Position numbers and translations under genes: made by a program. Shown here piece by piece: positions 128 to 60,125 of a DNA stretch of 60,125 bases. The notes below the pieces were generated by a model, which had not been told where the DNA came from, made no database searches, and was given only the letters and a program-made list of their open reading frames with translations. Origin of the DNA: a virus. Taxonomy: Duplodnaviria; Caudoviricetes. Every line of letters begins with the position of its first letter. Positions within the stretch are counted from its first letter, which is position 1. The stretch lies in the IMG/VR virus record IMGVR_UViG_3300044626_000224, positions 1 through 60,125 of that record; one strand, written 5' to 3'.

Positions 128-157
128 GATACTCAATTATCGTAAACGATAATCCAT

Positions 158-1279
158 ATGGGAAATTGCAACGAAACCATTATAGTAGCATCCTACGCTA
201 GATCAGCAAAAGAAAGTGCTATCAGCGCGGCTCACTCTGCTTGTCTCGCACAGCAATCTATTGGAGCCAGCGGAGCCACAGGGGCAACTGGATTTGGGGC
301 AACAGGTGCTACAGGAGAAATAGGTGCGACAGGAGCGACAGGATTGACAGGAGCCACTGGTTTAGTTTCTCCCGCAGGTGGAATAAGATGGGCTTATACA
401 GGAAACGGGATTCAAACGGCATTTAATATTGTTGGAGCAATTTCTACGCTCGCTACTGCGTTTTTGGTAACAATTGATGGAGTCACGCAAGACCCGAACA
501 ATTACAGTATAACCGGAACTACTTTAACAATTTCAACTGCTGTCCCTAATGGATCAGTTATTGTAATTATTTCTTTAAATGGAATTCAAGGCGCGACAGG
601 CCCAAGTGGTGGCCCTATAGGCGCAACTGGAGCAACTGGCAGTGGCGCGACAGGAGCTACTGGAATTATGGGTGCTTCTGGTCAGCAAGGCGCGACTGGC
701 CCTCAAGGTGCTACTGGGATTGGAGCTTCTGGAGCTACGGGGGCTACAGGACAACAAGGCCCGATTGGCCCTCGCGGAGCAACTGGAATGGTCGGCCCTC
801 GCGGAGCTACGGGATTGACTGGGCCTATGGGAGCGAGCGGGTCTGGAGCTACAGGATCAACTGGAATCGAAGGGCCAACTGGGGCTACGGGATTAACTGG
901 AGCTACTGGCGCGGGAACTACTGGAGCTACTGGAATTGGTGCTACTGGCGCAACGGGAGTTGTAGGCGCAACGGGAGTTGTAGGCGCAACTGGAGCAACT
1001 GGCGTTGGAATTCAAGGGGCAACTGGTGCTACTGGAGTTTTGCCGCCATCAAATGCAGGAAATGTATGGACATTCACTGGTGATGGAACTACTGCAAGTT
1101 GGACATTGACAGGAAATACATCTGGGAGTATTGTATCTGCAAATTATTTAGTAGTTATTGATGGAATTTTCCAAGCACCAGCAAATTTCACTATAAACAA
1201 TGTATCTCCACGAACACTTTCAATATCAACTGTTCCATCTGGAAGTTCTCTTATAGTTGTATCTCTTTCAACCGCTTAA
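158..1279 (+). CDS. Collagen-like (Gly-Ala-Thr) tail fibre protein, variant A
   Basis: Long G-X-Y runs; two copies of a W.YTG.G...LV.IDG..Q.P..Y/F domain; N-terminus shared with 54638-56014. Confidence 0.8.
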
Positions 1280-1295
1280 AAGAAAAAACAAAAAT

Positions 1296-2198
1296 ATGCC
1301 TATCACAAAAGCAACAGCAAATGTCGTAGATTTTGCATCTCCCAGTTCTCAAATTATAGCAGTTCCGGGTGACGATCTTCTTGCAAAATACGCTCAAGCT
1401 ATAACTCTAACTCCACAAGGGAATGCTCTTTCCGCAACAAATAGAGCAACATTGATTATCTATCCCGGCGTTTACACATTATCAGCTCAATGGAATGTAA
1501 CCGCTGAATTTGTTGATATACTTGGTATCGGTGATCAATTACAAAATCCAGCCGTTCTTTATACTGGATTTAATGTAGATGTTAGCGCAAATAATGTAAG
1601 GATTACAGGAATTGGAACAACAACTAATTCTTTGCATATTAGTGGTTCATTGCCTTTAAATGTATTTGAAAACTGCAAAGCACGCAGAGGTTCTTTTGCT
1701 GGAGCCTTTGGCGGCCCAGCATCTGGAACATACGTTGGATGCTTGGTTACTGGCGGGGCCGCTAGCGGAGCGTTTGGTATCGGCAATGTTGCTGATGGAA
1801 CATTTATTAACTGCAAAGCAACTACGTCCGCATTTGCTGGAGGAGACAACAATAACACATCGCAAGTTGCTTCTGGGGTATTTGATAATTGCGAATCACT
1901 AGGCGGGTTTGGGGCTTTTGGTGGGTTTACTGGGACAGCAAGGAATTGCAAGGGAGGTAGCAATTCTTTTGCTTCAAACCCAACAAGCTCTTCAACAATA
2001 CTTTCTGGAACCTGTATAAATTGCGAAGGTGGGACTAGTTCATTCGGTAATGGTGGTTTGTATGGTCAACCAAGAATAAGCGGATCATTGTATTATTGCC
2101 GTATAACTCCCGGTGGTGGGGCATTTGCAACAGTTACTGGAACTGGAATTACAAGATTGTGTATTGATGGGAATAACACGGAAAATAACCAAGGATAA
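1296..2198 (+). CDS. Putative beta-helix tailspike / receptor-binding protein (variant A only)
   Basis: IIYPGVY motif then repeated G.F.NC...F units typical of right-handed beta-helices; ATG at 1296 after an A-rich leader. Confidence 0.6.
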   Translation: MPITKATANVVDFASPSSQIIAVPGDDLLAKYAQAITLTPQGNALSATNRATLIIYPGVYTLSAQWNVTAEFVDILGIGDQLQNPAVLYTGFNVDVSANNVRITGIGTTTNSLHISGSLPLNVFENCKARRGSFAGAFGGPASGTYVGCLVTGGAASGAFGIGNVADGTFINCKATTSAFAGGDNNNTSQVASGVFDNCESLGGFGAFGGFTGTARNCKGGSNSFASNPTSSSTILSGTCINCEGGTSSFGNGGLYGQPRISGSLYYCRITPGGGAFATVTGTGITRLCIDGNNTENNQG

Positions 2199-2200
2199 TT

Positions 2201-2410
2201 ATGAAAACTTTCTTCAAAACAAAAGAATCAAATTGGACTGAAATTACAGGAAATGATGTAACTCAAGAAGACATTAATACTGTTGAGCAAATACTATCTG
2301 AAAATATTCCATCTAATGCAGATTTAATCTCTGCAAACATTACAATTCCACAAGTGACTGGAATTATTAATTTTCGTGTTGATGGCGAGCATTTGCAGTC
2401 AAGATTTTAA
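2201..2410 (+). CDS. Small hypothetical protein (possible fibre chaperone)
   Basis: 69-aa ORF tightly following the tailspike gene. Confidence 0.5.
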   Translation: MKTFFKTKESNWTEITGNDVTQEDINTVEQILSENIPSNADLISANITIPQVTGIINFRVDGEHLQSRF

Positions 2411-2451
2411 AATCCTTGACTAAACAATAAACTATCGTTAACGATAAAACT

Positions 2452-3414
2452 ATGAGTTGCGGAAATTCCAGAAGTTCAAAATGCAATCCATGCGGGCCGA
2501 GTGAGGCAGCGATGAATGCGATTGCAGAAAAAGCAGCATACTACGCAAGACTTGCCCAATATGCTTCAGATGGATTCAGCCAAGTTTATCTTGGGGCGAA
2601 AGATGTAGCACCTACCGCTGACAATAATGGAAATCCTTTAATCGTTGGTGCTTTGTATTACAACACAGTAGATGATCTTATCTACACATGGGATGGAGCA
2701 ATCTGGTCTGCAATACTTGTTGGAACAAATACCAACCAAACAATAGCAGGAGTTAAAACATTTACCCAACCAATCGTTGGTAGCATTACAGGAAATGCTG
2801 GAACAGCAACAACGCTACAAACTGGAAGAACAATTGGAATATCTGGATCAGTTACCGGAACCGCAACATCATTTAATGGTAGTGCAAATATAATCATACC
2901 AACAACGATTACAACTGGTGCGACGATCACGTCTCCCAACCTTGCAGGAACAGCTACTGGAGCGTTGACATCTAAAGTTTTGCAGGGAATTACTGATGCG
3001 ACTTCAGCAACCGCTGGATTTATTGGTGAAACATTTTCCGCATCAACAAGCGCAACAAGTATTGCAGACGATGACATTGAAACTGGAGCAACATTGAATT
3101 TGCCTGCTGGTGTATGGGAAGTATTTGGACAAGCAATATTTAATTTTTCAGGAGTTACTACAACTTCAGTTCAACCAATTGTTGCATCAATTAGCCCCAG
3201 CACGGGTGTGATTAACTATGGTAATTGCAATCAAGTTCTTATTCCTGTAATTTCTACAAGTTTATCGCTTTCTCCAACATACTCATTAGTTCCATCATTA
3301 TACAGGGTTCAAAGCACGCTTAATTTTTCTGTATATATAACTGTTAAATCACCAACAAGGAATGCTGGAGCAATGACATTTGAAACTTCAATTACAGCAA
3401 TAAGAGTAAGGTAA
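2452..3414 (+). CDS. Tail fibre protein, variant A
   Basis: Cys-rich N-terminus shared with 56074-56718; YLGAK..APT.DN.GNPL..GALYYNT and ITGNAGTATTLQTGRTI fibre motifs. Confidence 0.75.
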   Translation: MSCGNSRSSKCNPCGPSEAAMNAIAEKAAYYARLAQYASDGFSQVYLGAKDVAPTADNNGNPLIVGALYYNTVDDLIYTWDGAIWSAILVGTNTNQTIAGVKTFTQPIVGSITGNAGTATTLQTGRTIGISGSVTGTATSFNGSANIIIPTTITTGATITSPNLAGTATGALTSKVLQGITDATSATAGFIGETFSASTSATSIADDDIETGATLNLPAGVWEVFGQAIFNFSGVTTTSVQPIVASISPSTGVINYGNCNQVLIPVISTSLSLSPTYSLVPSLYRVQSTLNFSVYITVKSPTRNAGAMTFETSITAIRVR

Positions 3415-3418
3415 AAAT

Positions 3419-4756
3419 ATGAGTTACTGCACACCATGCCCACCATGCGACACGCAATTTCCATTGCTTTGTGAACCACTTGAGTTAACAACGCAAGCAA
3501 GCCGACTTGTTGTTGAAGATACCGCTGCTTGTCAGAAAACACTTCAAACCCCATCTTCCTCACAACAGGTTCTGAAATCAGTAGGTGGAAACTTGTCTTG
3601 GACAAGTGGAGGCAATAATTCTCTTCTCACTAAAGACAATAATGGATTTGTCGAGTTGCGTAATGGATCGCTATCGGAACCGATAACACTTCCAAGCATC
3701 GCACAACATACCGCAAGTTCAGTCCCATCTCAACTTGTCATGTTGTCTGATGGAACAGTAAAAGTTTGGGAGCCTTCACTCACAGCAGATAAGTATATCG
3801 CATACTGGGATGGAACTAACTGGGTAGCATCAACGCTCACAAACATTCTACCTTCTGGTAATGGTGTATTCTTCCGCGATACCGCTGGCGCATTGCAGGT
3901 AGCCACGGCAGGCGTATCTGGATCAACATTGCAGATGGTTGGGTCTAATATCCAGTTCGTTGCGGCTGGGCCAAACCAACTTCCGCAAGGATATATCTAC
4001 GGACTCACAATATCCAACAACGCTGCATCTGGAAATGATACACTTGATGTAGCTGAAGGACGATGCAGAAATACAGCAAATACATCAGACTTGGTATTAT
4101 CCGCAACAATGGTGAAAAACATCAACGCCAATTGGACTGCTGGAACAAATCAAGGTGGATTGGATGTTGGAACTAAAGCATCCGATTCAACTTACCATGT
4201 ATTTGTAATAGGAAACGGAGTTGCATTCGATGTTATCTTTTCGTTGAATTCCGTTGTGCCAGCGGTTCCAGATACATCATATACTTCTTCTCGCAGGATT
4301 GGATCATTCACAACTGACTCAGTTGGAAACATCCGACTATTCAAACAGATTGGAGATAGATTCTTGTATTTCTCGGATATTACAGTAGTAAAACCAATTG
4401 CATCTCAAGGAGGTGTAGCTGTAGGTATTGGTGGATCAATTTTTATTCTTAACGGGATTCCATCTGATATTATCGTAAAGCCATTGTTTGTTGCATCAAT
4501 TACGGCAGCAGTTCAGTGGGCGGTATTTGAAGTTGGGCAGGCATATCCATCTACTCAAATACCAGCAGTAAATAATACTGGCACAAACTATTTGAGGCAA
4601 GGAACCAGCACATCTGTTGTGATGAATACAATAGAACTTTATACAAATACATCAAGGCAGATTGGTGTAGATGTATCTGCTGCTGTAACATCTGGAGCTA
4701 CTGGCTTATACATTGACGTGTATGGTTGGGTTGATGATCGCGGCAAAACATTCTAA
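3419..4756 (+). CDS. Tail fibre/appendage protein, variant A
   Basis: N-terminal CTP.PPCD..FPL.CEP...LVVED..AC.KTLQTP anchor shared with 58761-59612; GGLD.G......TYHVF..RRIGS C-terminal fibre domain. Confidence 0.7.
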   Translation: MSYCTPCPPCDTQFPLLCEPLELTTQASRLVVEDTAACQKTLQTPSSSQQVLKSVGGNLSWTSGGNNSLLTKDNNGFVELRNGSLSEPITLPSIAQHTASSVPSQLVMLSDGTVKVWEPSLTADKYIAYWDGTNWVASTLTNILPSGNGVFFRDTAGALQVATAGVSGSTLQMVGSNIQFVAAGPNQLPQGYIYGLTISNNAASGNDTLDVAEGRCRNTANTSDLVLSATMVKNINANWTAGTNQGGLDVGTKASDSTYHVFVIGNGVAFDVIFSLNSVVPAVPDTSYTSSRRIGSFTTDSVGNIRLFKQIGDRFLYFSDITVVKPIASQGGVAVGIGGSIFILNGIPSDIIVKPLFVASITAAVQWAVFEVGQAYPSTQIPAVNNTGTNYLRQGTSTSVVMNTIELYTNTSRQIGVDVSAAVTSGATGLYIDVYGWVDDRGKTF

Positions 4757-4758
4757 AA

Positions 4759-6603
4759 ATGCCATCCGAAGGATCAGTATTTGACGGATTCACAAGTATC
4801 ATAGCGCAAGACGCAGATACTCATCCATCATATCTACCAGAGTCAGTAGTATCAGAGTCGGTAAATAGGACATTCCGAGGAGGGATTAACCGAACAAGGA
4901 CAAGCATTCGGAATATCGTAATCAAAGCGGGAGATGGTCAACCATCAACTATCGTAAACGATATTCAGAATGGCAACTTCCAAGGGGCGTATCCATATCG
5001 CAGAACAAAATATGAATCTGCTGATGGAATACTATTGTCTGTATCTGGCGTGATCTACTTCTTAAAGATTACAAACAACTTTGCAACGGCATACAAGATC
5101 ATTGACGGGAACGATCCCGGCATGATGCACACATGGTTTGTGCAAGCAGAAGATAGAGTTTATATCCAGAATGGATACCAGAATGCCATAGCATGGGATG
5201 GCGACCTTAATACTCCAGCATACAGGCTCAATCCATTTAAGCAGCAAATGCCGATTGGGACGATCATGGAGTATGCTTTCGGGCGAGTCTTTGTATCTGA
5301 TAGGTTCAACCAAATCTACGCTTCGGATATTATCTACGGAAATGGATTTACCGATACCAAGAATACGGAGAACTTCACTGAGATAGGATACTGGGCAGAA
5401 GGCGGTGCATTCTCTACCCCTGCAATGATGGGGAATATCACAGGGATGAAAGTCATGCCACAGATTGGAACTAACCTTCGCGGTCAAGGTGAGCTTGTAA
5501 TCCTAACTGGCAACGGAGCATTCTCAATGGATGTATCTATCCCAAGGTCAGAATGGAATACTTCAAACATCCAGCGCATCTCACTCCTTGGGCGCGGATG
5601 CACATCGCCATACCTTGGACTTGCTAACTCTGAACTTTGGTTTAGGTCACACGATGGTTGGGCGTTCTATTCTAATAGCCAATCTGAATTTGCAAGATAC
5701 TTCTCGCTTCGTAAACTTTCGAGGGAAGTAAACAAGTGGGTCGAGAATGACACTCCTTGGCTGAAGCAATTCGCTTCTACGATGTTTTTTGATAACTACA
5801 TCATCAGCACAGTTTCTCCACAGACCTACCGAGCAGAAGGTGTAGAAGGACTGAATAGGTATCATAGGGGCATGGTTGTTCTCGACCTCGACCAATCTTC
5901 TTCCCCGTCTCCAGATGCAGAACTTAAATTTCGTTGGAATGGTATCTGGACAGGCATCAGACCAACTCAACTTCTGACTGCATTGATCCAAGGTGAAAAG
6001 CGTGGATTCGGATTCTCGTTTGATAAAGACAATAAGAACCGACTTTACGAGTTCACTATAGCCCAAGGTGATGACTACGGCCCAAATGGAAGCAGGCAGA
6101 TTGAATCCTTCTTCACAACTGGAAGGTATGACTTCAACCGAAGCGGGGCTACCAACAAGTTCCTCCGCAAAAAGATTACTGGTGGAGAAATGTGGATGAG
6201 TGAGATTAAGGGACAGGTAGAAAGTGATGTTGAGTTCCGCGCAGATAGTAATCCCTGTTGGTCAGAACTAAAAGTGCCTACGACATTTGGATGTGACCCA
6301 TGCTCGCCAGTAGTAACTGAATGCTTCCCGCAACGAGGAGGTAATCGCTACAAACGCTACAAGTTTAACACACCAGACCCAAGTGAGTGCAATGACTTGG
6401 CAGGCATTCCATCGGTAGAGGGGAGCGAGTTTCAGATTAAAGTCAACCTAACTGGAGCGGCTACAGTTGACCGAGTGCGACTGATGGCAAACATCAAGAA
6501 CAACGATGATTCTCCAGTTGGTGACTGCCCCGAAGAAAATCAAGAATGTGAACCATTTTTGTGTTGCCAAGAAAAATATTGGAATTACAATATTGTAAAT
6601 TAA
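4759..6603 (+). CDS. Putative tail nozzle / tail tubular protein B (P22 gp10/T7 gp12-like)
   Basis: 614 aa, beta-rich, positioned between fibres and adaptor/ejection genes; 5' part repeated at 59612-60125. Confidence 0.6.
   Translation: MPSEGSVFDGFTSIIAQDADTHPSYLPESVVSESVNRTFRGGINRTRTSIRNIVIKAGDGQPSTIVNDIQNGNFQGAYPYRRTKYESADGILLSVSGVIYFLKITNNFATAYKIIDGNDPGMMHTWFVQAEDRVYIQNGYQNAIAWDGDLNTPAYRLNPFKQQMPIGTIMEYAFGRVFVSDRFNQIYASDIIYGNGFTDTKNTENFTEIGYWAEGGAFSTPAMMGNITGMKVMPQIGTNLRGQGELVILTGNGAFSMDVSIPRSEWNTSNIQRISLLGRGCTSPYLGLANSELWFRSHDGWAFYSNSQSEFARYFSLRKLSREVNKWVENDTPWLKQFASTMFFDNYIISTVSPQTYRAEGVEGLNRYHRGMVVLDLDQSSSPSPDAELKFRWNGIWTGIRPTQLLTALIQGEKRGFGFSFDKDNKNRLYEFTIAQGDDYGPNGSRQIESFFTTGRYDFNRSGATNKFLRKKITGGEMWMSEIKGQVESDVEFRADSNPCWSELKVPTTFGCDPCSPVVTECFPQRGGNRYKRYKFNTPDPSECNDLAGIPSVEGSEFQIKVNLTGAATVDRVRLMANIKNNDDSPVGDCPEENQECEPFLCCQEKYWNYNIVN
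5146..5272. repeat. Exact 127-bp direct repeat of 59999-60125 (contig-end overlap)
   Basis: Identical for 127 nt; the preceding base differs (A5145 vs G59998). Confidence 0.95.
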
Positions 6604-7275: not shown

Positions 7276-7296
7276 TTATCGGAAACGATAATCCCT

Positions 7297-11440: not shown

Positions 11441-14400
11441 ATGACTTTTTCATTTGATGAACTCAAATCTCTTAGGAAAGAGGGATTCACGGACGATCAA
11501 ATTGCTTCTGTTTTATCGTCAAACGATAAAAGTATAGGAGATGTATTTAAAGAGGGCTATACATTAGATCAAATTACATCTGTGATTTCTGGTCAACCAA
11601 TACCAGAACCAGAACCAATCGAAGAGCGAGGTATAGTCCGCGCTGCTGGTGATGTTGGTGTAGCTTTCCTCCAAGGTGGAGTAGGTGCATTCCGTTCTTT
11701 GACTGATATATTTGGCGCAGATAATCCAGCTTCAACTGCACTTCGCGGAGTGGAAGAAGATGTTGGCAATCTCCTTTCTGCTCAAGCAAAGGAAGACAAG
11801 AACGAAGTATCACGCATTCTTACAGAAGCCCAAGATAAAGGAATCTATGATCAACTTGTTGCAGGTGTAGAAGCATTTGCTACTGCACCAGTTCTAACAA
11901 CAGCAGGCGCGGCGGGAAGTATTGCTGTGAACTTACTTGGTGGTATCACCGCTAATGCTGCATCATTAGGGATAAGGGGCGTTGCTTTGGGAGCTAAAGG
12001 CTTGATGGCTTCTCAAGCGGCAGTAGGTGCTGCTCAAGGTGCGGGAACTATCAAAGGTCAAATTTACGATGCAACTGAAAGCTACCTTTTAGAGCAAGGT
12101 ATGTCTCCAGAGATTGCCAAGCAAGGGGCAAGTGAAGCGCAATCATACGGAGGTAAAAATTTAGATAGCATACTTCTTGGAACGGGACTTGGTGCTGCCA
12201 ATGCATTGACTGGTGTAGAAAAGATTGCTGGCAATGTCATACTAAAACAGGGTGGTATCCCAACAAAATCAGCAGTAAGACGCTTTATTACTGGAACCGC
12301 TGGTGAAATGGCTCCAGAGGCAGTGCAAGCAGGACAAGCGGAAGCAGCACAAAACTTGGCACTGCAACGTGAAGGTGCTGATGTTCCAACTATGCGAGGC
12401 GTTGCATCTGCTGCTGCATTAGAGGGACTCGCTGGTGGTGCGCTTGGTGGCCCAACATCATTGTTCTTCAATAGACCAAGGGGGGAAACGCCACAGGTTG
12501 CTGAAGAAAGGGAAATAGATTCAACATCAGATCAAGTGGCAGACGAACTTGATAAGGAACCAACATCTCCAGCCACTGAAATGGCAATGAGGAGAATGCA
12601 GTCCCAAACTCAAATCGATAATCTTAAAACAGAAATCGAAGAGGACGAGCTTACTCTTCAGTCTATAGAGCAGACTTCACCAGATAGACAGAGGGCTGAG
12701 TTAGCACTGAGTGGCAAGAAAACTGCCTTGGCAAATTTAGTCTCAGAGTTCAATACAATTCCCAAAGAAGAATTATCGGAAACGATAATTAAGGAAGAGC
12801 AACCTGTCGCAGCACCTGCAACACCCACCGCTACCAAGGAATCAGCACTCGCAAAGATCGAAGAACTAAACAAGGAGTTCGATGCTTTGGATGAAAACGA
12901 CCAAGTAGGCATAAATAGGGTGAACGAAGCTATCGCAGTTGAGCAGAACAAACTCGCTGAACTTACCGCTATTGAGCAGGGAGTAGAACCACAGGGAACA
13001 ACTCCAACCCGTGAGATGGGACTTCCACCATCGGGTAGGAGATCAGAATTCGGAACCTTCTTTCCAGATCGACCAGTCCTTCAAGCATTCGTTAAGGCTA
13101 CAGACAAAGTTCTCGGAGCTATACAGGCTACAGGGAAACGCGCCCAGAAGCTCAAGAATGCGATCAGAACGGGGATTGCTGCCAATGCAGGGTTCTTGGC
13201 CGGAACGAACACAGAGGTTATCTCAAGCGAAGAATACGCCAAGCTGACAGGTGGCAAGCAAGTAGCCGCCGATACAGGCACATACCGCGCAACATTCCTC
13301 AATGGTAAAAAGTATCTGGTAGTTCCAGATGTAAATGTGCTTCAGCAATTAGCAACTCAAGGTGAACAACGAGCAGCAAGCAGAGACGCTGCATTGGATC
13401 AAGAGTCACGAGCAGCAGCCAAGAAACTGGAAGAGGAGATGATCCACCTCTCCATGTTCCAAGGTATCCAAGACGAGTATAAGGCTCTCAAGAAACCTAA
13501 ACTCACAGAGCAGGAATACATCGTAAAACGAATCTCTGACATAGCCCAAGAAGTAAAGCGCACCAATCCTAATGCTTTGCCGGGCGTTTCTGAAGTATAC
13601 TTGAACGAGAAGAACAAGAACCTCGATGACCTTACCTTCTCTCAAGAGTTCATGCGAATGGTGATCCAGCGCGTAAGAACTGGGCAGATCACCGAAGACT
13701 TGAATGCTATCAGAGCAGCAGAGAAAGAAGCATTCTCTGACAAAGATAAGGGTCTTATCGCGGCATGGAAGAACTCCATCCTTAACGCACTCAAGTTCGC
13801 TCGTAACTCCATCGCCCGTTACCTTGGCAAAGGAACCTCGACCAAGGAAGTGAAGAAGATGGAAGATGCCATCAACAACATCCTTGATGAGTATGGTATC
13901 GTAAAGGGTGAGGCTAACTACGAGTTTAAGGATTACTCTGCTGCTCAACCTAAAGGTGGAGTGAAAGCAGAACCCACCGAAGTTACCCCAACTACTGAGG
14001 AATCCTTACCAGTTGAAGCAGTATCGGAAACGATAACTCCAGCAATCGAAGCGAAGGCTGGCGGCAGATCAATGTTAGCAGCATTAGCAATTGCCGGACT
14101 TCCAATATCAGCTCCAATACAGCAAAGTAATATCAAGGGATCAGAAAAATTAGAAAACATACAGGGATATGAAAAGTATAAAGTTGGAGGAAAGGAATAC
14201 TATCGAATAGATACCTCCGTAAATCCAGAGTTAGAAAAAGCTACTACACTTGCGGCTGAAATCGGAGCTTCGTTATATACTAAACTTGATAATAGTCCAC
14301 AGGCAAAAATATACAAAAGAGTAGTTCTTGAAAGAAATGGAACTACTATTACAGAAAAAGATTTTACTGCTGATGAACTCGCCCAACTCCAAGATGCTGT

Positions 14401-18724: not shown

Positions 18725-18786
18725 GGCTGATGTAGTCTGAGTCCGCAGCATTTCGGGATGTTGTATACGTGTTATTCATTAGGTTG

Positions 18787-18822: not shown

Positions 18823-18866
18823 ATCGTTTCCGATAAAAATATTTTTAGAAATATTATAAAAATCTA

Positions 18867-40260: not shown

Positions 40261-40268
40261 AAGCAATC

Positions 40269-43313: not shown

Positions 43314-43349
43314 ATCAATAAGAAAATATATTTTCCGACGAAAGGCAAG

Positions 43350-43727: not shown

Positions 43728-43777
43728 ATTAAGAAATGCCTTGAATTCATTATCGTAAACGATAAAAGTAAAATCTT

Positions 43778-48521: not shown

Positions 48522-48777
48522 AAAAATATCGCTTGACATACTAAATAGGTGATTGCAATGTCCCGAAAAGAGAAATCCGAAAGTTATCGTTTACGATAAT
48601 TATTAGGGATTCAGCCGCACTCTGGCTGGCGAGTTTTCGACCTCGCATGAAAAACGATTTCTGGACAGATAAAAACTCTGGGTTGAGTCCAGCAGAGGAA
48701 ACCAAGCACTCGCTTGCTATTCCTCATGGTGTAGTTTGCGGTGCAAAACTAAACCAAAACCAAAATCAAATAAATCA

Positions 48778-50187
48778 ATGAGCGATCAACTCTACTTCAA
48801 TAGTTGTGCCGAGATTGACAGTTTCTTCCGCGAGGGCCGCGAATATTTCAACGACCTCTATGTGAAGAAGCTTGTCACCAACTCTGCATATTTCACCCGT
48901 TTCGAGGAGCAAGCATGGCCCTTGAACCACACAACCGAACAGAAAGCATTCCGCTTTGGCCGTGGATTCCACGATCCTTGCGCTCCTTTCCGCACGATTA
49001 CCGACACCTACTGCGAGACTGATTCTTGCGATAGCAAACCCGAAGTCATCCAACGCCCCGGCACTGAGAGCTACACTTTCGAGCTTCTCCGTAAAGAGAT
49101 GACCACTGACTGGATTTGCGTTGAGAGCTTGCTCTATCGCCTCTTCCCCGCTGAAGAGATTCTCCAGTTTGAGGAGTCGAATGCCCGTATCACCAAGAAC
49201 GTCCACGAAGAGTTCCTTCGCTCCAACTACATCGGTGGTTCTGGACACAAATGGATGGGCATCACCACGGATGACGGAACCTACTGCGGTTTGGTCGATG
49301 ACCAAGCATGGTTCGTTCCAGAGCATACGCTCAACAACGAAGCTGGCTACGACCTCTGCGCTCTTCGCGTTAAGATGGCTCCAGCCGACCTCAACAAGAT
49401 CGCTTATCTCTCGCTTGATATGCTCGACGATGCTCTCGTTGACCTTCAAGACGAAGATGACGCTTTCCGCCTTGATCTCCAAGACGCGACTGGTCAGCCT
49501 CTGCTCGACATCGTTATCCCCGATCCTCAAGTTGGCCGTGCGCTTTACTTCCAAGCCAAGCGCAACAATGGTTACTGGGATGCTAACACGGATTTCGACG
49601 AACGCCTCACCCGTCTGAAACTCGGCATCAATCGTATCATCGGCGACTACGCCTTCGGTTACGACATCAACGCCGCTCGTTTCAACGCTGACACTGCCTT
49701 CAACGCAAGCCTCGCTCCATTCAATGAAGCTGATCCTGCGACATGGGCACGTCTCGTTCGCGTTCCTCGTTACATCAAGGTTGTCCAAGAAAACGGCTGC
49801 TCCTATGTTCCTAACCGCGCTTACCGCAATGCCGACTTCGGTATCTCGGTTGCTATGGTGAACAAAGCAATGTGCAAATGGACAATGCCATCCTCGACTG
49901 GATACGGCCAAGCCCAACAAATGACCCAGAACTACGCTGGTGATTGGGAATGGAAGAACCCAGATTGGGAGTGCAACCGCTGGCGCAAATCGGGCTTCTA
50001 TCAAGCTCAGTTCCGTCTCGCCGCACAGGTTAAAGACCCAACCATCATGCACTCGTTCCTGCATCGCCTGCCACAAAGCAAGAGCCTCTATGGTTCCTGC
50101 TGCGAGGTTCAGAGCTACATCGTTCCTGAAAACAATCAGGACTGCTATAGCTGCGCTGGTGTGGGTGACATCGTTGTGCCTTCCTAA
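48778..50187 (+). CDS. Major capsid protein
   Basis: 469 aa from ATG 48778; strong C/T-ending codon bias; follows scaffold; hairpin at 50196-50223 downstream. Confidence 0.75.
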   Translation: MSDQLYFNSCAEIDSFFREGREYFNDLYVKKLVTNSAYFTRFEEQAWPLNHTTEQKAFRFGRGFHDPCAPFRTITDTYCETDSCDSKPEVIQRPGTESYTFELLRKEMTTDWICVESLLYRLFPAEEILQFEESNARITKNVHEEFLRSNYIGGSGHKWMGITTDDGTYCGLVDDQAWFVPEHTLNNEAGYDLCALRVKMAPADLNKIAYLSLDMLDDALVDLQDEDDAFRLDLQDATGQPLLDIVIPDPQVGRALYFQAKRNNGYWDANTDFDERLTRLKLGINRIIGDYAFGYDINAARFNADTAFNASLAPFNEADPATWARLVRVPRYIKVVQENGCSYVPNRAYRNADFGISVAMVNKAMCKWTMPSSTGYGQAQQMTQNYAGDWEWKNPDWECNRWRKSGFYQAQFRLAAQVKDPTIMHSFLHRLPQSKSLYGSCCEVQSYIVPENNQDCYSCAGVGDIVVPS

Positions 50188-50918: not shown

Positions 50919-51465
50919 ATGGCTTGTTTCACATCTCTTCCTTACCGCGATAAAACTTATCCATTTCTTCAAACTATTTTTGCTGCCACTGAACTTACTC
51001 CCATTTCTTTTGGGTGTTATGATGCAGCGACTGATGCCTCCAAGCTCTATCAGTTCTATCTTGGCTTCGCAACCATCGGCGGCCTTACCCCAGTTACTGA
51101 AAACTGCTTTGTGCAAAAAACTGAAGACCAGCAATACTATCTCACTAACGAAGCTCTTGCTGCTGCTCTTGCTTAATTATCGTAACCGATAAAATATTAT
51201 GGCACTCACTCAACCCTGCTTTACCAATCTAACTCCAGATCAACAGAATTTCAATATCTATGAATCTCTGAAAGAGATTGCGGGGTTTGAGATTCCTGCC
51301 TACGATCAGATTGACATTAGTTACTATGGTTCGACTAACAATATTGCCACTGTGCAGTATCTAAAAGACGGAACTCCAGTTGCAACGCTAACCCTTGCTT
51401 ACGCTATCCAGCCTCCAGTTACTAACGATGCGAATCTTACAACTGTGTCTGTAGCTTACCCATAA
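50919..51465 (+). CDS. Two small structural proteins (50919-51176, 51199-51465)
   Basis: Both carry CF..L/K..DQQ/DK-type motifs; located in head module. Confidence 0.55.
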
Positions 51466-54061: not shown

Positions 54062-54603
54062 TGGTTCCGAATTCCAGACCGCAGCAAGCAAAAGAAAAGA
54101 CCCTCGCAATGGTCATCAAAGCGGGGATCGAAGATCGCGTCGCGTTGGTCGGAATTCGTGGATATTATGCAGACTCAATGGGGGTCAAAGGAAAAAATGA
54201 TCGGGGCATCTATGACGATGCGATTATACTATTATCTCCTTCTGTTCATGCTACTTTCAACGCTAATACTGATCCATCAGTTTACAAGAAAGGCATTGCG
54301 GTGCTTAAAACGGGCGTTCATAGATTTCGTAAAGGGAATCACGGCATTAGCAAGCCCGATGGCGGCTATCCAGCGTTGCGACCTGCTAACGCCAAAGAGG
54401 AGTTGCCTGTTACGCGAGACGGCACTGGAGACGATATGGGAATCGCTATCAACATCCATAAGGGCAGTTATAAATCGACTTCAAGCGAAGGATGCCAGAC
54501 GATCTACCCGCCGCAATGGGATGGGTTCATAAACCTCGTCTATTCAGAGATGAATAGATACAACCAAAAGACGATTCCATATCTATTGGTGGAAAACGCT
54601 TGA
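54061..54603 (+). CDS. Putative endolysin, YkuD/L,D-transpeptidase-like Cys peptidase
   Basis: LVGIRG, YDD, NTDPS, INIHKG....TSSEGCQT (H...S.GC); follows holin-like genes. Confidence 0.7.
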   Translation: MVPNSRPQQAKEKTLAMVIKAGIEDRVALVGIRGYYADSMGVKGKNDRGIYDDAIILLSPSVHATFNANTDPSVYKKGIAVLKTGVHRFRKGNHGISKPDGGYPALRPANAKEELPVTRDGTGDDMGIAINIHKGSYKSTSSEGCQTIYPPQWDGFINLVYSEMNRYNQKTIPYLLVENA

Positions 54604-54637
54604 ATTAAAAATCACTTTATCGTAAACGATAATCCAT

Positions 54638-56014
54638 ATGGGAAACTGTAATGAAACTATCATAGTTGCATCTTATGCAAGGTCAGCAAAAGAAAGTGCC
54701 ATCAGCGCGGCTCAATCTGCTTGTCTTGCACAGCAATCCATTGGAGCAAGTGGAGCCACAGGAGCTACTGGAGTCGGAGCTACAGGAGCCACGGGACTTA
54801 CTGGTTCTACTGGCCCATCTGGTGGCCCAACAGGAGCAACTGGAGCCACTGGTCAAGGCTCGACTGGGGCTACAGGCATCTCTGGTATCAACGGAACCAC
54901 AGGGGCTACAGGTCTTCGCGGAGCCACTGGAAGCACAGGAATTCAAGGACAGCAAGGTGCTACAGGATTGCAGGGTTCTACTGGGATTGGCGCATCGGGA
55001 GCTACAGGAGCAACTGGTCAACAAGGGCCGATTGGGCCACAAGGATCAACTGGAATGGTCGGCCCTCGCGGAGCTACAGGTTTGACTGGCCCAATTGGGG
55101 CGAGTGGGTCTGGAGCTACTGGTTCAACTGGAATCGAAGGGCCAACTGGGGCTACGGGATTAGAAGGGGCGACTGGCGAGGGAACTACTGGAGCTACTGG
55201 TGTAGATGGTTCAACTGGAGCCACGGGAGCCACAGGGCCAGAAGGAAGCACTGGGGCTACAGGGATCGGGGCCACAGGCGCAACAGGAATTCAAGGTGCA
55301 ACGGGACTTACTGGGCAATCATCTACTTTTTACAATTACAAAGCTGACACAACTATAACGAGCGGAACCCCTGCAATCAATACATTGTATTGGGATAACG
55401 CTACGCAAACATCTTCTGCTGTTGTAACGCTTTCTCACATTGACGCGCTTGGAAATGACATTGATGTCTTCTTTCCGTTATTCAAAACAAACGATACATT
55501 CATTGTTCAAGACCAAAGCAATTCAACCAATTTCCAAACTTGGAGGATTACCGCTACACCTACTGTTGTTCTTAATAGTTATATTTCAATTCCAGTAACA
55601 CTTGTTACATCTGGAGGAACATCTCAATTCACAAACAATCAGCAATTGATATTTGCAATTGTTACATCTGGATTGACTGGAGCCACGGGATTACAAGGTA
55701 GCACAGGAGCCACTGGAATTGCGGGAGGACAAGGCTCAACGGGCAGCACTGGCATTCAAGGCGGCACTGGAGCTACAGGTATCGGTTCAACTGGAGCAAC
55801 TGGGGTTGGAGCTACAGGTGCTACTGGCCCCTCTGGAAGTGCTGGTGGAGCTACAGGTGCAGGAACTGATGCCATCTTCTTTCTGAATGGACAAACAGTA
55901 AATACATCTTACACAATTCCAGTAGCACAAAACGCTGGTAGTTTTGGCCCAATCACAATTGCGTCTGGTGCTGTAGTAACAGTCCCATCTGGTGGAATAT
56001 GGACTGTGGTGTAA
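54638..56014 (+). CDS. Collagen-like tail fibre protein, variant B
   Basis: Same N-terminus as 158-1279; different middle and C-terminal domains. Confidence 0.8.
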
Positions 56015-56073
56015 TTTATCAAAAAAATGCTTGCAATGAAAACAATCAACACTATCGTAAACGATAATCAACT

Positions 56074-56718
56074 ATGAGTTGTGGAAATTCCAGAAGTTCT
56101 AAATGCAATCCGTGCGGCCCAAGTGAGGCCGCAATTAATTCTATTGCGGATCGTGCAGCTTACTATGCTCGTATAGCTATAGTTGCTTCGGAGACTGGTG
56201 GCGGTATCCGTTGGGGATATATCGGTGATGGAACTGAAGTTACCTTCAACATTGATGGAGCCGCGACAACCAATAGCGCATCATTCCTTGTAACAATTGA
56301 TGGAGTAGTCCAAGACCCATTGGATTACACAATCACCCAAGGATACCCATATACCATTACAATGAACAATCCCGTCCCGTCTGGTGATGAGATTGTCATT
56401 GTATCATTGAATGGTAAGACTGGTGCAACTGGCCCCGGAGCAGGAGCTACTGGCCCAATAGGGCCAACTGGAGCTACAGGCATTCAAGGCCCAATCGGGC
56501 CGGGTGGTGGTGCTACTGGAGCAACGGGAGCCACTGGGGTAACAGGAATTGGAATTACAGGTGGAGGAACAGATGAAGTATTTTGGGAAAACGATCAAGT
56601 TGTTACTACAAATTACACGATCACCACAAACAAAAATGCGTTTACAGCAGGGCCAATTACAATAAACGCAGGAGTAGTAGTAACAGTGCCATCAAGTTCA
56701 ACATGGACAGTAGTATAA
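56074..56718 (+). CDS. Tail fibre protein, variant B
   Basis: Same N-terminal ~33 aa as 2452-3414. Confidence 0.75.
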   Translation: MSCGNSRSSKCNPCGPSEAAINSIADRAAYYARIAIVASETGGGIRWGYIGDGTEVTFNIDGAATTNSASFLVTIDGVVQDPLDYTITQGYPYTITMNNPVPSGDEIVIVSLNGKTGATGPGAGATGPIGPTGATGIQGPIGPGGGATGATGATGVTGIGITGGGTDEVFWENDQVVTTNYTITTNKNAFTAGPITINAGVVVTVPSSSTWTVV

Positions 56719-56730
56719 AGGATTAAAATT

Positions 56731-58346
56731 ATGCCAGTAACAATTAACGGAACAACAGGAGTAGTAACACCCGGAGCAACCATTGGATCAATCAATGGTA
56801 TTTTGAAATCATCTTCTGGAGTAGTATCGCAAGCAGTAGCTGGACAAGATTATGGACAACTAACTCTCGCAACCGAACAAGCTGCATCTGGAACTTCGGT
56901 TGACTTTACTGGTATTCCTTCGTGGGCAAAACGAATTACTGTAATGCTCAATGGTGTTAGTATTGGTGGAACATCAGCTTTTCTAATACAAATTGGTTCT
57001 GGTTCTTTTACAACATCTGGCTATAAATCTGGTTCTTGCGGTGCGTCAGTCTCATCAAATGTCTCTGTTGGGACAAGCTCAACAGCGGGTTTTACAGTAT
57101 GCAGCCTCTACGCAGCAAGCACAAATAGCGCAATTATTACGTTGGCTCTTTTTTCATCAAATACTTGGGTTGAATCCCATAGTTCTTACACGGTTGGCGG
57201 GGCGTTTACATTTACATTTACTGGTGCTGGAACTCTTGCTTTGGGTGGCACTCTTGATAGATTAAGAATCACGACAACAAACGGCACAGACACATTTGAC
57301 GCTGGAACAATTAACATTTCTTACGAATAACATATGGCAACATCACTCACATTAGAAAACGACTCCAGCCTCGCGCAAGGGTATCTCAAGGTCAATGGCT
57401 CAACTGCCGCCACGCTGACTACGAGTGGCATTACAGGTAACTTGACTGGGAATGTTACTGGTAACGCTGATACTGCTACAAAGTTCTCAACTACGACTGG
57501 TTCTGCTCCTGCTTACGCTTGCCGAGCATGGGTGCATTTTGATGGAACACGCGATACTACTGGCGCAGTTAGCACAGCAAATACAAATCGTCTCATTCGC
57601 GCAAGTGGAAATGTATCGAGCGTTTTGAGAAATTCTGTTGGTAATTATACGATTACATTCACTATTGCGATGACGGATGCGTTTTATTGCCCATCTGGAA
57701 TGTGTTACTATGATAACGCTTCTAATTATTTAGCTATTCCTCTTATTGTAACTTTAAATACTGGTTCATTTAGAGTTATATCTGCTGTTGAAAATTTGAC
57801 AACTGGAGTTGCAGTGCCTCTTGATACATCTGTATTTTCAGTTCAAATCTTTGGAAACTAATCATTATGCCAACAACAATCGACTCCGCAGGAATTACTT
57901 TTAACGATGCAACCTCACTGACGAGTGCTGTGCTTGCAGCTAACTCTGTTGGTGCAACGCAGATTGCTAATGGTTCAGTCACCGCAGTAAAACTTGGAAC
58001 TAACGAGCAGAAGCAGATTTGCAAAGCATGGGTGAATTTTAATGGGACTACATCGCCCGGAACGATCCGCTCCAGCTACAATGTCTCCAGCGTTACGAAG
58101 AATGGAACTGGCGATTATACTGTGAATTTTACAAGTGCGTTGTCTGATGCGAATTATAGTGTTTGCGGCACAGGAAATGGCGTGGTAGGAGGAAGCTCAA
58201 TAACAAGTGGAGGTCTTATTAGTATAAATACAGCTACAACATCAACTCCACTTCAAATTGGATCGGTAAGATTAATTGGCTCAACAAAAGATTTTACAAG
58301 TGCAGCAGATAACTCAATTGTAAATGTCCAAATCTTCGGAAACTAA
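56731..58346 (+). CDS. Three fibre-subunit proteins, variant B only (56731-57330, 57334-57861, 57867-58346)
   Basis: SGTSVDFTGIPSWAKRITV and C(R/K)AWV.F.G...IR.S.NVSSV.....G.YT..F..A..DA.Y motifs of fibre proteins. Confidence 0.7.
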
Positions 58347-58350
58347 TTTT

Positions 58351-58755
58351 ATGTTTATCACTTACCCACAACCCAATGGACAAGTAGCAGTAGTTATTCC
58401 TACTGGCGATGTTAATGACGCAATCAAAGATGTTCCAGCAGGAGTAGAATACAAGATTATCGAATCAGTTGATATTGATAACGACTACTTCAACGCATAC
58501 GAGTTTGACGCTGAACTTGGCGCAAAGGTCAATATTGATAAAGCTAAAGCTATTCACCTTGATAAGTTTCGTAATGCTCGCGCTCCTAAACTTTCCAAAC
58601 TCGACATTAACTTTATGAAGGCAGTTGAGACCAACGACGAAGAGAAGAAAGCTGAAATCATTGCCGCTAAACAAGCACTCCGCGATGTTACTTTGACTCC
58701 GCTTCCAGATGATCTTGCTGGCATCAAAGCAACTTGGCCCGATATTCTGAATTAA
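58351..58755 (+). CDS. Tail fibre assembly chaperone-like protein
   Basis: KDVPAG..YKI, R.AR.P.L..LD..FMKA.E...KQALRD.T...W. Confidence 0.6.
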   Translation: MFITYPQPNGQVAVVIPTGDVNDAIKDVPAGVEYKIIESVDIDNDYFNAYEFDAELGAKVNIDKAKAIHLDKFRNARAPKLSKLDINFMKAVETNDEEKKAEIIAAKQALRDVTLTPLPDDLAGIKATWPDILN

Positions 58756-58760
58756 ATATT

Positions 58761-59612
58761 ATGACTCCATGCACTCCAGCACCTCCATGCGACTTGGAAT
58801 ATCCATTGTTCTGTGAACCCCGTGAGATTACAGCAATCGCTAAAAGGTTGGTTGTAGAAGATTCATCTGCTTGCGATAAGACGCTTCAGACTCCACCATC
58901 CAGTCAAGTTCTTGTGTCTAACACAAACGGAACAATATCGTGGACTAATGGAGCGAATGATACTCTTCTACGAAAGACATCAACTGGAAGCGTTGAGTTT
59001 GCTACGCTGAATAACATTCTTCAAGCTAACCCAGTTAATCTTGGTAGCCAATCATTGACTACTACCGGAACGATAAATGCAGGAATAGTCAATGCTACCA
59101 GCGTTACTCTTGCCGCGAATCCAACTACAAATCTTCAAGCTACAACCAAGCAGTATGTTGATGCCGCTGATGCTCTGAAGCTCAATAAGGCTGGAGATAC
59201 GATGACTGGTGCGCTTATTGTGAACAGCACGATTTCCAGCAACTCGACCATCTTGGCGAATGGAAACTCATCCAAAATTGGATATGACACAGGTGCTGGT
59301 GGATCGGTTACCCAAGGCGCGGGAGCAAAGACAAATTCTGTTACACTCAATCGTCCTACTGGAATTATCGTTACCGATAGCGCGGCACTCGCGGCCAATA
59401 CTGCCGTTACCTTCAACTTGAGCAATTCGGTTATCGACGCTACTGACATTGTTGTTGTAAGTCATATCTCTGGAGGAACACTTGGATCATACAACTTTGC
59501 GGTAGCTCCAGCGGCAGGCAATGCTAACATCGTGATTAGGAATATCACCGCAGGAAGTTTGTCTGAAGCACTGACATTGCGGTTCATTGCAATCAAGAGT
59601 GTCAACGCATAA
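58761..59612 (+). CDS. Tail fibre/appendage protein, variant B
   Basis: N-terminal anchor shared with 3419-4756; ATTKQYVD...KAGDTMTG fibre motif. Confidence 0.7.
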   Translation: MTPCTPAPPCDLEYPLFCEPREITAIAKRLVVEDSSACDKTLQTPPSSQVLVSNTNGTISWTNGANDTLLRKTSTGSVEFATLNNILQANPVNLGSQSLTTTGTINAGIVNATSVTLAANPTTNLQATTKQYVDAADALKLNKAGDTMTGALIVNSTISSNSTILANGNSSKIGYDTGAGGSVTQGAGAKTNSVTLNRPTGIIVTDSAALAANTAVTFNLSNSVIDATDIVVVSHISGGTLGSYNFAVAPAAGNANIVIRNITAGSLSEALTLRFIAIKSVNA

Positions 59613-60125
59613 TGCCAGCAGAAGGGTCAGTCTTTGATGGATTCACAAGTATCATCGCGCAAGACGCAGATACCCATCCATCGTATTTACCAGAGTCTGT
59701 AGTATCAGAATCGGTAAATAGGACATTCCGAGGCGGCATTAACAGGACAAGACCAAGTATTCGGAACATCCCGATTATGGCTGGAGACGGAGAAGCTGAA
59801 ACTATCGTTAACGATATTCTTGGAGGTAACTTCCAAGGTGCGTATCCATATCGTGCAACTAACTTGAAAACGAGCGATGGTATCTTGCTATCGGTATCTG
59901 GGATCATCTACTTTCTGAAGATGGTAAACAACCGAGCGTTTGCCTACAAGGTCATCGAAGGCAACGATCCGGGCATGATGCACACATGGTTCGTGCAGGC
60001 AGAAGATAGAGTTTATATCCAGAATGGATACCAGAATGCCATAGCATGGGATGGCGACCTTAATACTCCAGCATACAGGCTCAATCCATTTAAGCAGCAA
60101 ATGCCGATTGGGACGATCATGGAGT
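59612..60125 (+). CDS. 5' part of tail nozzle gene, variant B allele (truncated by window end)
   Basis: MPAEGSVFDGFTSIIAQDADTHPSYLPESVV, homologous to 4759 onward with many synonymous changes. Confidence 0.85.
   Translation, partial: MPAEGSVFDGFTSIIAQDADTHPSYLPESVVSESVNRTFRGGINRTRPSIRNIPIMAGDGEAETIVNDILGGNFQGAYPYRATNLKTSDGILLSVSGIIYFLKMVNNRAFAYKVIEGNDPGMMHTWFVQAEDRVYIQNGYQNAIAWDGDLNTPAYRLNPFKQQMPIGTIME

Follow-up and report, generated by a model that had tools for sequence, protein, structure and literature searches.

A 14-bp palindrome, TATCG-N4-CGATA, recurs across the whole genome of a tailed phage (Caudoviricetes; virus record IMGVR_UViG_3300044626_000224), and we interpret its copies as dispersed sites for a phage-encoded, two-fold-symmetric candidate DNA-binding protein, a reading to which we give a probability of about 0.45. 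The window, as we use the word here, is the entire record of 60,125 bp, in which recognisable proteins are very few. Its two ends are diverged copies of the tail-fibre region (1-316 resembles 54481-54796 at 90.5% identity, and 4758-5272 resembles 59611-60125 at 83.5%), which puts the genome unit at about 54.5 kb. The feature is genuine, under strong selection and present throughout the lineage: the palindrome occurs in large excess, is symmetric down to its degenerate positions, is maintained by selection on DNA, is spaced evenly, and is, in the sequences examined, largely confined to one phage lineage in which it goes together with one gene module.

All 31 exact copies lie where an earlier note, made from the sequence alone, had placed them, from 138-151 (TATCGTAAACGATA) to 59803-59816. 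Dinucleotide shuffles of the window yielded a mean of 0.03 copies and a maximum of 1, and 0/100 shuffles reached 31. Twenty-seven copies fall within the first 54,480 bp, that is, within one genome unit, with a largest gap of 5,497 bp, in agreement with the count per unit given in that note. The enrichment is restricted to the 4-nt spacing (31 copies vs 0-2 at the other spacings tested, 0-12 nt), TATCG is the sole enriched 5-4-5 palindrome in the window (the runner-up has 3 copies), and direct or everted arrangements of the half-sites are not enriched there. Lone half-sites stand close to expectation, with 99 occurrences of TATCG and 85 of CGATA in 60 kb. A further five copies carry one mismatch (24677-24690, 27213-27226, 28376-28389, 30147 and 45964). 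Chance or base composition as the source of the copies is ruled out by these shuffles and by the codon shuffle described below, and a mobile element or MITE (miniature inverted-repeat transposable element) is ruled out by the flanks of ordinary copies, which are alike for one base at most.

The degenerate positions are themselves two-fold symmetric, as had been proposed for the site of a dimeric binder. Position 6 is exclusively G or T and position 9 exclusively the complement set, C or A, in the 31 window copies and in 322 distinct copies from relatives, and the spacer reads K-W-W-M with the two exceptions that had already been remarked on (TAGC at 24170 and TGAA at 25499). A flanking T...A pair extends the motif by one base on each side in 69% of the window copies and 87% of the 322 distinct copies in relatives, giving a full site of 16 bp, T-TATCG-K-W-W-M-CGATA-A, with half-site centres 9 bp apart. 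With each spacer read in the sense direction of its local genes, 17 copies have AA at the two central positions and 4 have TT (our own count); the rough binomial P of about 0.01 (our own estimate) suggests a skew beyond strand A-richness alone, and it may stem from codon constraints or strand composition (AT skew).

Selection acts on DNA, not on protein, a conclusion that the earlier note had reached by reasoning and that we base on the excess over a codon shuffle and on frozen third codon positions. When synonymous codons were permuted within open reading frames (ORFs), which keeps every protein and the codon usage, in-ORF copies averaged 1.6 over 1000 runs, with 5 as the highest count, against 22 observed in the greedy ORF set used for this count. 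In the copy at 41561-41574, which lies in the 3' part of the large terminase (TerL) ORF and is intact in 76/76 loci, all 107 distinct sequences have the same base at each of the four third-codon positions that fall on fixed bases (100% identity, vs 64.9% at third positions elsewhere), and 0/656 same-phase windows are as conserved. For the copy at 38345-38358 in the DnaB-like helicase ORF the third positions are 98-100% identical in 56 sequences vs 68.5% elsewhere, with 2/397 windows as conserved. Fewer sequences could be aligned for the copies at 20637-20650 (ORF 20251-21069; intact in 5/5 relatives), 4950-4963 (ORF 4759-6603; intact in 6/6 aligned relatives) and 34622-34635 (5' end of the GT4 glycosyltransferase ORF; intact in 16/16), for which 0/143, 1/581 and 0/365 same-phase windows, respectively, are as conserved. 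Conservation is unremarkable at 30934-30947 in ORF 30389-30997 (16/176 windows), and six in-gene copies have too few aligned relatives for the third-position test: 3672-3685 (ORF 3419-4756), 12774-12787, 14022-14035 and 15877-15890 (all in the 2427-aa ORF 11441-18724), 26628-26641 (ORF 26485-27357) and 28950-28963. In-ORF copies are read in two frames, as had been noticed, with one exception in frame 0. A repeated peptide motif is ruled out by the two reading frames, the intergenic copies and the frozen synonymous sites.

Individual copies have turned over while copy number and even spacing have been held. Site by site, most copies are kept while their flanks vary, and five close genomes have a copy at the homologous place for 73-91% of the window's mappable copies. 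The corresponding figures are 8/14 in the more distant genome G007 and 3/4 in G006, which represents the most distant motif-bearing clade. The TerL copy and the SF2 helicase copy (24170-24183) are among the old ones, each having a homologous copy in both of these genomes, and G007 also has a copy at the place homologous to 15877. Most copies in G006 and G007 lie in sequence beyond alignment with the window, and their totals are nonetheless 27-29.

The motif is a property of one phage lineage, hundreds of contigs strong and seen in metagenomes only; tblastn of TerL against 50,697 phage records found no cultured relative. A TerL search recovered 80 loci of close relatives (83-99% identity), and the motif is present in 80/80, with 372 copies in 905 kb vs 2 for a reversed control. 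Five whole close relatives carry 19, 21, 16, 23 and 29 copies. More distant clades, which we reached through distant TerL representatives and two alignments of them, extend the distribution to 60/60 further loci, down to 50% TerL identity; for the nearest two distant representatives, P0001 and P0002, no loci were found among the viral contigs searched. The motif occurs at 0.3-0.8 copies per kb in a clade of 72-76% TerL identity and 50% G+C, and likewise in one genome at 50% TerL identity; the whole genomes G007 and G006 have 27 and 29 copies. In G006 the ten core bases are unchanged, and the flanking base is C/G instead of T/A. The relatives thus keep the motif, as a scan proposed in the earlier note was meant to establish. 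TerL matches in four loci (L067, L080, L081 and L082) span 2577-2967 nt instead of about 2007, as an intein or another insertion would give.

The distribution ends at a sister clade of 41-42.5% TerL identity, which has 5 copies in ~201 kb over 17 loci (our own sum) and shows no other enriched palindrome; its five whole records have 1, 1, 0, 0 and 0 copies. The 91%-complete sister genome G012 has TerL, the 43350-43727 gene, and portal, capsid and tail genes in common with the window. No homologue was found in it of the exonuclease, the genes at 20251 and 21112, the SF2 helicase, the genes at 25745, 28405 and 35255(-), DnaB or the 2427-aa protein. Judged by gene content, the motif tracks the early/replication module and not the shared structural module. 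Five sister-clade loci retain a single copy each, and two or more of the whole records have one copy, with the spacer TTCC/GGAA, in the likely major capsid gene (G012:14973-14986 and G013:23417-23430).

With curated gene calls, 19/31 copies lie in ORFs and 12/31 in the non-coding 6.9% of the window, a 5.6-fold enrichment of the motif in non-coding DNA, and 13/28 gaps of at least 16 nt contain a copy. Several intergenic copies sit immediately before start codons, ending 5-7 nt before the ATGs at 158 (copy 138-151; tail-fibre-like gene), 2452 (2433-2446, 5 nt), 7297 (7277-7290, a gene junction, 6 nt), 51199 (51178-51191, 7 nt; intact in 13/14), 54638 (54618-54631) and 56074 (56053-56066, 7 nt); the first ends 6 nt before its ATG, and its counterpart at 54618-54631 belongs to a second, diverged tail-fibre region. 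The copy at 43751-43764, between ORF 43350-43727 and the portal-like ORF 43778-46282, ends 13 nt before its ATG (intact in 38/42). Two more stand in the gaps before the likely major capsid ORF 48736-50187 (48585-48598; intact in 27/27) and before ORF 39883-40266 (39877-39890; intact in 12/25 relatives). Across all loci, for ATG-ORFs 2-29 nt downstream, the distance from copy to ATG peaks at 6-8 nt (77/165 distinct contexts), and the stop codon TAA of the upstream gene is frequently inside a TAAA or TAAC spacer; many copies are therefore squeezed into minimal gene junctions. Terminators account for two further positions: the copy at 18822-18835 lies directly 3' of a terminator-like hairpin (18786-18815, 13 pairs) and its T-run, and that at 23216-23229, where plus and minus gene blocks converge, directly follows a GCCCACC/GGTGGGC hairpin with a T-run on the minus strand, found by eye. 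The placement before starts and next to terminators that had been described from the letters alone is thus borne out. Near the right end, in-gene copies occupy ORF 58734-59612 (59366-59379) and ORF 59612-60124 (59803-59816, the counterpart of 4950).

In each of the 8 genomes the copies are more evenly spaced than expected at random, as the idea of a genome-wide, evenly spread system would have it, with a coefficient of variation of 0.50-0.79 vs 0.93-0.95 and P ≤ 0.026 in 7/8; the close genomes are mutually non-independent in this test, and the window, G006 and G007 are largely independent. The densest cluster is the early region, 24.2-29.0 kb, with about 10 copies in 4.8 kb, and the same pattern is seen in G006 and G007. 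Here four copies of a repeated element of ~90-130 nt, all of them upstream of minus-strand early genes, lie on the minus strand within 25440-27527: A (25440-25570), B (26170-26300), D (27154-27284) and C (27397-27527). Each comprises, in order, a long, imperfectly paired hairpin whose apex is the motif (25499-25512 in A; 26229-26242 in B; 27456-27469 in C; the one-mismatch copy 27213-27226 in D, the only one of the four so altered), a small hairpin, a GAAAACACGAAAC-like word and an ATG 12-30 nt on. Stem sequences differ among the four elements while the pairing is kept, the small hairpin co-varies too, and the predicted RNA folds have minimum free energies of -38 to -46 kcal/mol; the flanks of ordinary copies show no such extended pairing (mean 5 of 20). 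The GAAAACACGAAAC-like word is present also in G004, G005 and G007. The elements could be processing sites, 5' stabilisers, promoters or cruciforms. A sigma-70 promoter scan did not rise above shuffles in 23000-30000 (16 vs 11.3 +/- 3.9) or 18500-23500 (8 vs 6.7 +/- 2.3). The cluster continues with a copy at 27836-27849, in a stretch of uncertain coding status (27592-27882), and one at 28163-28176, just within the start of the minus-strand ORF 27863-28189 and 242 nt upstream of the gene at 28405.

That gene, 28405-29004(+), encodes a 199-aa protein, F4, which is our leading candidate for the binder, being the sole family found in all motif-bearing clades that looks, in its predicted structure, like a specific DNA binder; the case is suggestive only. 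Other families common to all these clades include 35255-35497(-), 20251-21069, 21112-22089 and 25745-26164. Among the complete or near-complete records searched, F4 is encoded in 10/10 that bear the motif (the 8 whole genomes examined, G008, and a phage contig in the metagenome-assembled genome (MAG) G011) and in 0/3 motif-poor ones (G012-G014). Structural prediction places three helices in an arrangement like that of a helix-turn-helix (HTH) at residues 15-52 (pLDDT near 90 in the full model and 80 when folded alone), followed by a long, coiled-coil-like helical hairpin at 54-129 and a disordered acidic tail. The best structural matches of the N-terminal domain are nearly all HTH DNA-binding domains, headed by a Tn3 resolvase (Z 4.9), GcrA (4.7) and a cluster A2 immunity repressor (4.4). 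Foldseek returned no match at E ≤ 0.001 for the full model or the N-terminal domain, and a wide VIA structural search with the full model returned helical hairpins. A homologue search yielded 77 relatives, all from this lineage and none with a Pfam domain, named 'hypothetical protein' apart from one 'GreA/GreB family factor'. In the ESM Atlas the nearest clusters are unnamed viral ones, followed by clusters carrying Terminase_5.

The F4 gene is also marked by the motif itself. It has a sigma-70-like promoter, TTGAAT-17-TACATT, ending 6 nt before the ATG at 28405, which implies a leaderless or nearly leaderless transcript, and the spacer of this promoter holds the one-mismatch copy at 28376-28389 (TATCGTGTCAGATA). 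In the window, G004 and G005 the promoter takes the form TTGAAT/TTGATT-17-TACATT/TACTTT, 6-7 nt before the ATG, and its spacer holds a copy that is exact or has one mismatch (exact in G005); in G006 the motif overlaps the -10 element. At this place G007 has TTGACA-17-TAGCTT with 7 nt, and other relatives show similar promoter-like matches. Within the 3' end of the gene there is a copy in every clade save G001-G003: 28950-28963 in the window, at +545 likewise in G004, G005 and G007, and at +835 in G006.

Other proteins fit less well. An Xre-type HTH protein (HTH_3, 112 aa; 40317-40655(+)), the only gene of this type in the phage and our second candidate, was not found in the motif-bearing G006. 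F5, the 80-aa product of 35255-35497(-) and the third candidate, has a pI of 10.5 and is well conserved over all three motif-bearing clades (jackhmmer E 8e-40 to G006); it has no family match. The Xre-type protein and an NrdR-type zinc-ribbon protein (34840-35097(-), set aside as binder) are missing from G006, and the 43350-43727 protein, likewise set aside, is present in the motif-free sister clade; all three are therefore poor candidates. The ESM Atlas gives a single unnamed cluster, at 0.77, for the last. Four proteins had been put forward as binders in the earlier note, and this list fared unevenly. The protein at 40317-40655 is a true Xre-type HTH protein and is the one missing from G006; that at 21112-22089 occurs in all clades and has no recognisable DNA-binding domain; that at 29154-29939 was found in G007 and not in G006; that at 39400-39762 was found in neither; and 28405-29004, which was not on the list, fits better.

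Symmetry, a frozen core, silent-site selection and linkage to a phage module together point to a phage-encoded dimeric DNA-binding protein, and it is from these that we infer that the sites are bound, by what, and to what effect. In such a system (T)TATCG-K-W-W-M-CGATA(A) would be the recognition site of a protein encoded in the early/replication module, each monomer would read one half-site, TATCGKW, and about 16-29 sites would be kept across the whole phage chromosome. F4 would be the protein that reads them. Sites at promoters and in early elements would act as operators for auto-repression and early-gene shut-off, and those at junctions, after terminators and in genes would serve as scattered anchors or road-blocks through which the entire chromosome is marked and organised. 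The even spread of mostly in-gene copies suggests a role exerted by whole-chromosome coverage, through road-blocks, bridging or marking. If a phage protein does read the sites, they would form a compact natural sequence code written over coding sequence and marking a whole replicon, and would supply a new specific protein-DNA pair.

A number of observations weigh against this interpretation. An operator role is not obvious for the 19/31 copies within genes, 15/28 gaps of at least 16 nt have no copy, and some copies are dispensable, 24170 being lost in 3/6 close relatives and 39877 in 13/25. Searches of 5 genomes yielded no Phage_integrase or Resolvase match at E ≤ 0.1 (the positive controls matched in 14/14 and 13/14 control genomes), and prophage silencing, the classical reason for genome-wide repressor sites, therefore seems inapplicable. 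The structural matches of F4 are all at Z ≤ 4.9 or Foldseek E > 2, the protein has no Pfam, PHROG or PDB sequence match (a PDB profile search gave two chance-level rows), and its promoter has no motif in four motif-bearing genomes, G001-G003 and G007. The whole early module co-varies with the motif, so that a presence/absence profile cannot single out one gene, and for the sister clade this profile draws on one genome that is 91% complete and two that are partial. A host-encoded binder is possible.

A more novel reading, which we hold unlikely, is that the palindrome is a regularly spaced 'self' tag, kept at the cost of synonymous freedom and read by a terminase-small-subunit-like F4. With such a tag the phage would tell its own DNA, over the full length of the chromosome, from that of the host, and could use the distinction to package from many entry points, to compact its DNA or to shield it from its own nucleases. 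We know of no 'self' tag system of this type described for any virus.

Of the rival explanations the most probable, though still unlikely, is a packaging signal proper, in which F4 would be the small terminase and the copies many dispersed pac-like sites, so that headful packaging could start on any DNA of the phage and exclusively on phage DNA. Small terminases combine an N-terminal HTH with a helical hairpin for oligomerisation and a tail that is acidic and disordered, and this is also the layout predicted for F4. In its nearest named Atlas clusters 76% and 72% of the members have Terminase_5 (scores 0.94 and 0.93), and its weak structural matches include the Sf6, P74-26 and G20c small terminases. 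The Atlas feature counts, however, are 165 and 161, below the 170 usual for same-family matches, the Terminase_5 HMM has no match in 5 genomes at E ≤ 1, and PHROGs, Pfam and PDB sequences gave no terminase match. Pac sites are located within terS genes or close to them. Similarly, the F4 gene lies amid the densest cluster of sites, and all three deep clades retain a copy inside the 3' end of this gene. Terminal overlaps of 86 bp in G002 and 127 bp in G006 resemble circular assemblies and look like circular or permuted genomes, which fits headful packaging, and even spacing suits a whole-genome tag. Against this, most small terminases have ring symmetry, to which a two-fold palindrome is ill-suited; another small conserved gene, 43350-43727, which stands between TerL and portal and is shared by the motif-free sister clade, could encode the true small terminase; and no phage is known to us to use tens of pac sites.

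We consider it doubtful, and less probable than a packaging signal, that the motif is the box of a host regulator or nucleoid protein, carried by the phage in many copies to titrate that protein during phage DNA replication or to pass as self. Its 5-4-5 geometry is that of FNR/CRP-type and some LexA-type boxes, and a core invariant over deep phage divergence is what a conserved host reader would lead one to expect; a phage binder remains a candidate alongside. The motif nevertheless follows the phage early module and not the structural module. We also scanned one genome per bacterial or archaeal species (185,579 genomes) with one 16-mer form and obtained one exact match per stretch over many phyla; 8/120 stretches had two to four 14-bp copies, and 2 of those 8 are phage contigs binned into MAGs. 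In G011 all 20 copies are on one 51.8-kb phage contig (C3, L216), and in G010 9/12 are on three small phage-like contigs (C96, C130 and C186), the other three having G+C-rich spacers. In the 301 genomes of the phylum of G010 the motif occurs in 43, with at most 4 copies each, much as for the reversed control. It is thus not a feature of the cellular genomes tested, which may not include the host, and the mimicry of a host self-mark that had been entertained finds no enrichment in them. Nor were the motif strings found in the literature searched, save as unrelated oligonucleotides, in keeping with the earlier note's failure to recognise the sequence; the host-regulator consensus sequences known to us differ from TATCG-N4-CGATA. 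The two MAGs are labelled Woesearchaeota archaeon (G011) and Chthoniobacter species (G010), and the lineage's contigs in them are probably binning artefacts; the Chthoniobacter MAG is at best a weak hint at the host. The leaderless-type promoter, together with the absence of Shine-Dalgarno sequences before 36/41 genes, suggests a further clue to it. As these two cases illustrate, the 14-bp motif is a simple marker for fragments of the lineage in metagenomes and in mis-binned MAGs.

An RNA-level signal seems improbable to us. The motif would here be transcribed as a hairpin (5-6 bp stem, 4-nt loop) for an RNA-binding protein or RNase, acting in translation of a gene that starts 5-8 nt downstream or in the processing of long operon transcripts. 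Consistent with this, the 6-8 nt to the ATG in 77/165 contexts would be a ribosome-binding position in a genome where 36/41 genes have no Shine-Dalgarno sequence, the motif stands at the apex of four early-element hairpins whose stems differ and stay complementary, and the central spacer is skewed to AA on the sense strand (17 vs 4). But the short distance to the ATG may simply follow from how closely the genes abut, a stem of 5 bp made up largely of A-U pairs is weak, and ordinary copies lack extended flank pairing. The same ten bases occur in every copy and every clade, with no compensatory stem changes, and the complementary spacer and flank sets (K/M, W/W, T/A) fit double-stranded DNA read by a dimer and would have no reason in a single-stranded loop. 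A known RNA family is ruled out, Rfam giving 0 matches at gathering score in the whole window.

Least probable is the target site of an enzyme that would modify, nick or cleave it, such as a methyltransferase, a T5-type nickase or the nuclease of a self/non-self system. Palindromic bipartite sites such as this are typical of type II enzymes, and the phage encodes a PD-(D/E)XK-type exonuclease, a weak Hjc/PDDEXK-like protein and a dCMP deaminase plus glycosyltransferase cluster. But restriction targets are as a rule avoided, not enriched 1000-fold; Pfam and PHROGs revealed no methyltransferase family among the proteins scanned; G006 and G007, both motif-bearing, yielded no homologue of the glycosyltransferase; and known phage nick sites are asymmetric and on a single strand, unlike the palindrome.

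Whole-genome dispersed phage binding sites are, to our knowledge, known in detail solely from a few temperate phages, in which they silence the prophage. Against this background, a lineage in which no integration genes were detected keeps a perfect palindrome every ~2 kb, mostly in genes under synonymous constraint. The nearest parallel is the stoperators of cluster A mycobacteriophages (L5, Bxb1, TipsytheTRex), with >20 sites over a ~50-kb genome at promoters and gene junctions for one phage HTH protein; they are asymmetric 13-mers bound by a monomer, lie in short intergenic spaces, are oriented with transcription and belong to temperate phages (PMC9283540). The palindrome resembles them in copy number (27 per unit, and 16-29 in seven relatives) and in genome-wide spread. 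It differs in being a 14-16-bp perfect dyad with symmetric degeneracy, in lying mostly in ORFs (19/31, with 12/31 in gaps) and in the absence of any integrase or resolvase match in the 5 genomes; the phage has one Xre-type HTH gene, whereas stoperator phages have an immunity repressor and integration functions. Stoperator orientation has no counterpart in a palindrome, which has none, only its spacer being skewed.

Two further phage repeats offer partial parallels. SPBRE of the Bacillus prophage SPbeta was first seen in silico as a repeated element and later became the site of the master repressor MrpR, a protein of recombinase fold; it is a 15-bp motif in about 9-10 promoter regions (PMC10516654). 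Both are conserved elements dispersed over a phage genome, and ours differs in having about 27 copies, mostly intragenic, in a genome where no lysogeny genes were found. The T1-like virulent phage TLS has about 20 copies of a 21-nt repeat whose function is given as not known and which its authors liken to stoperators; these are direct repeats oriented with transcription, about 76 nt upstream of starts, with 18/21 intergenic (PMC11447400). Our motif is instead a palindrome that stands 5-8 nt from starts or within genes.

By analogy, the system appears nearer in its logic to chromosome-organising palindromes such as matS and Noc sites than to stoperators. The sites of matS/MatP, SlmA, Noc, parS/ParB and RK2 KorB are 12-16-bp palindromes in tens of copies, in and between genes; their reader is dimeric and may bridge via a coiled coil, and their function depends on distribution over the replicon. 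Shortness, copy number, placement in and between genes and a non-random, here even, distribution are common to both. Those sites belong to cellular chromosomes or plasmids, however, no MatP, ParB, TetR/SlmA or comparable family was found by Pfam among the window proteins scanned, and we know of no chromosome-organising site system from a 55-kb virulent phage. In pac and cosB systems the small terminase, an HTH protein with a helix for oligomerisation, binds short repeated elements within its own gene or close by; the predicted layout of F4 and the conserved copy inside its gene match this pattern, and the difference is that known systems have one site region per genome as opposed to 27 dispersed palindromes. 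HIP1-like iterated palindromes number thousands in a cellular genome, and ours shows no excess in the bacterial genomes searched, which may not include the host.

The recognisable gene content of the window is quickly told. On the minus strand it includes TerL (41463-43472, a weak match), the DnaB-like helicase (37535-38767), a replication-initiator/DnaD-like protein (38774-39403) and the SF2 helicase (23279-24913); the PD-(D/E)XK-type exonuclease lies at 19136-20014, and tail-fibre-like proteins are the remaining named products besides the Xre-type HTH protein, the NrdR-type zinc-ribbon protein, the dCMP deaminase, the GT4 glycosyltransferase and the weak Hjc/PDDEXK-like protein. Searches of Pfam, PHROGs and PDB sequences gave no match for the 2427-aa ORF 11441-18724, which lies in the tail-gene region, and likewise offer no support for its product as a virion RNA polymerase using hairpin promoters. 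This protein is common to the window, G006 and G007, and was not found in the motif-free sister genome G012. The NrdR-type protein (85 aa, E 1.1e-13, without the ATP-cone) adjoins the dCMP deaminase and the GT4 glycosyltransferase and is present in most relatives. Small, lysine-rich basic ORFs stand in a row at 35094-35868(-), namely 35255-35497, 35540-35686 and 35683-35868, and are hidden by spurious plus-strand ORFs under greedy ORF calling. Finally, the tail-fibre region is duplicated at 1-5272 and 54481-60125 in blocks that are 90.5%, 83%, 82% and 83.5% identical with unrelated genes in between, either because the assembly runs on into a second strain or as a genuine tandem variant cassette of receptor-binding genes.

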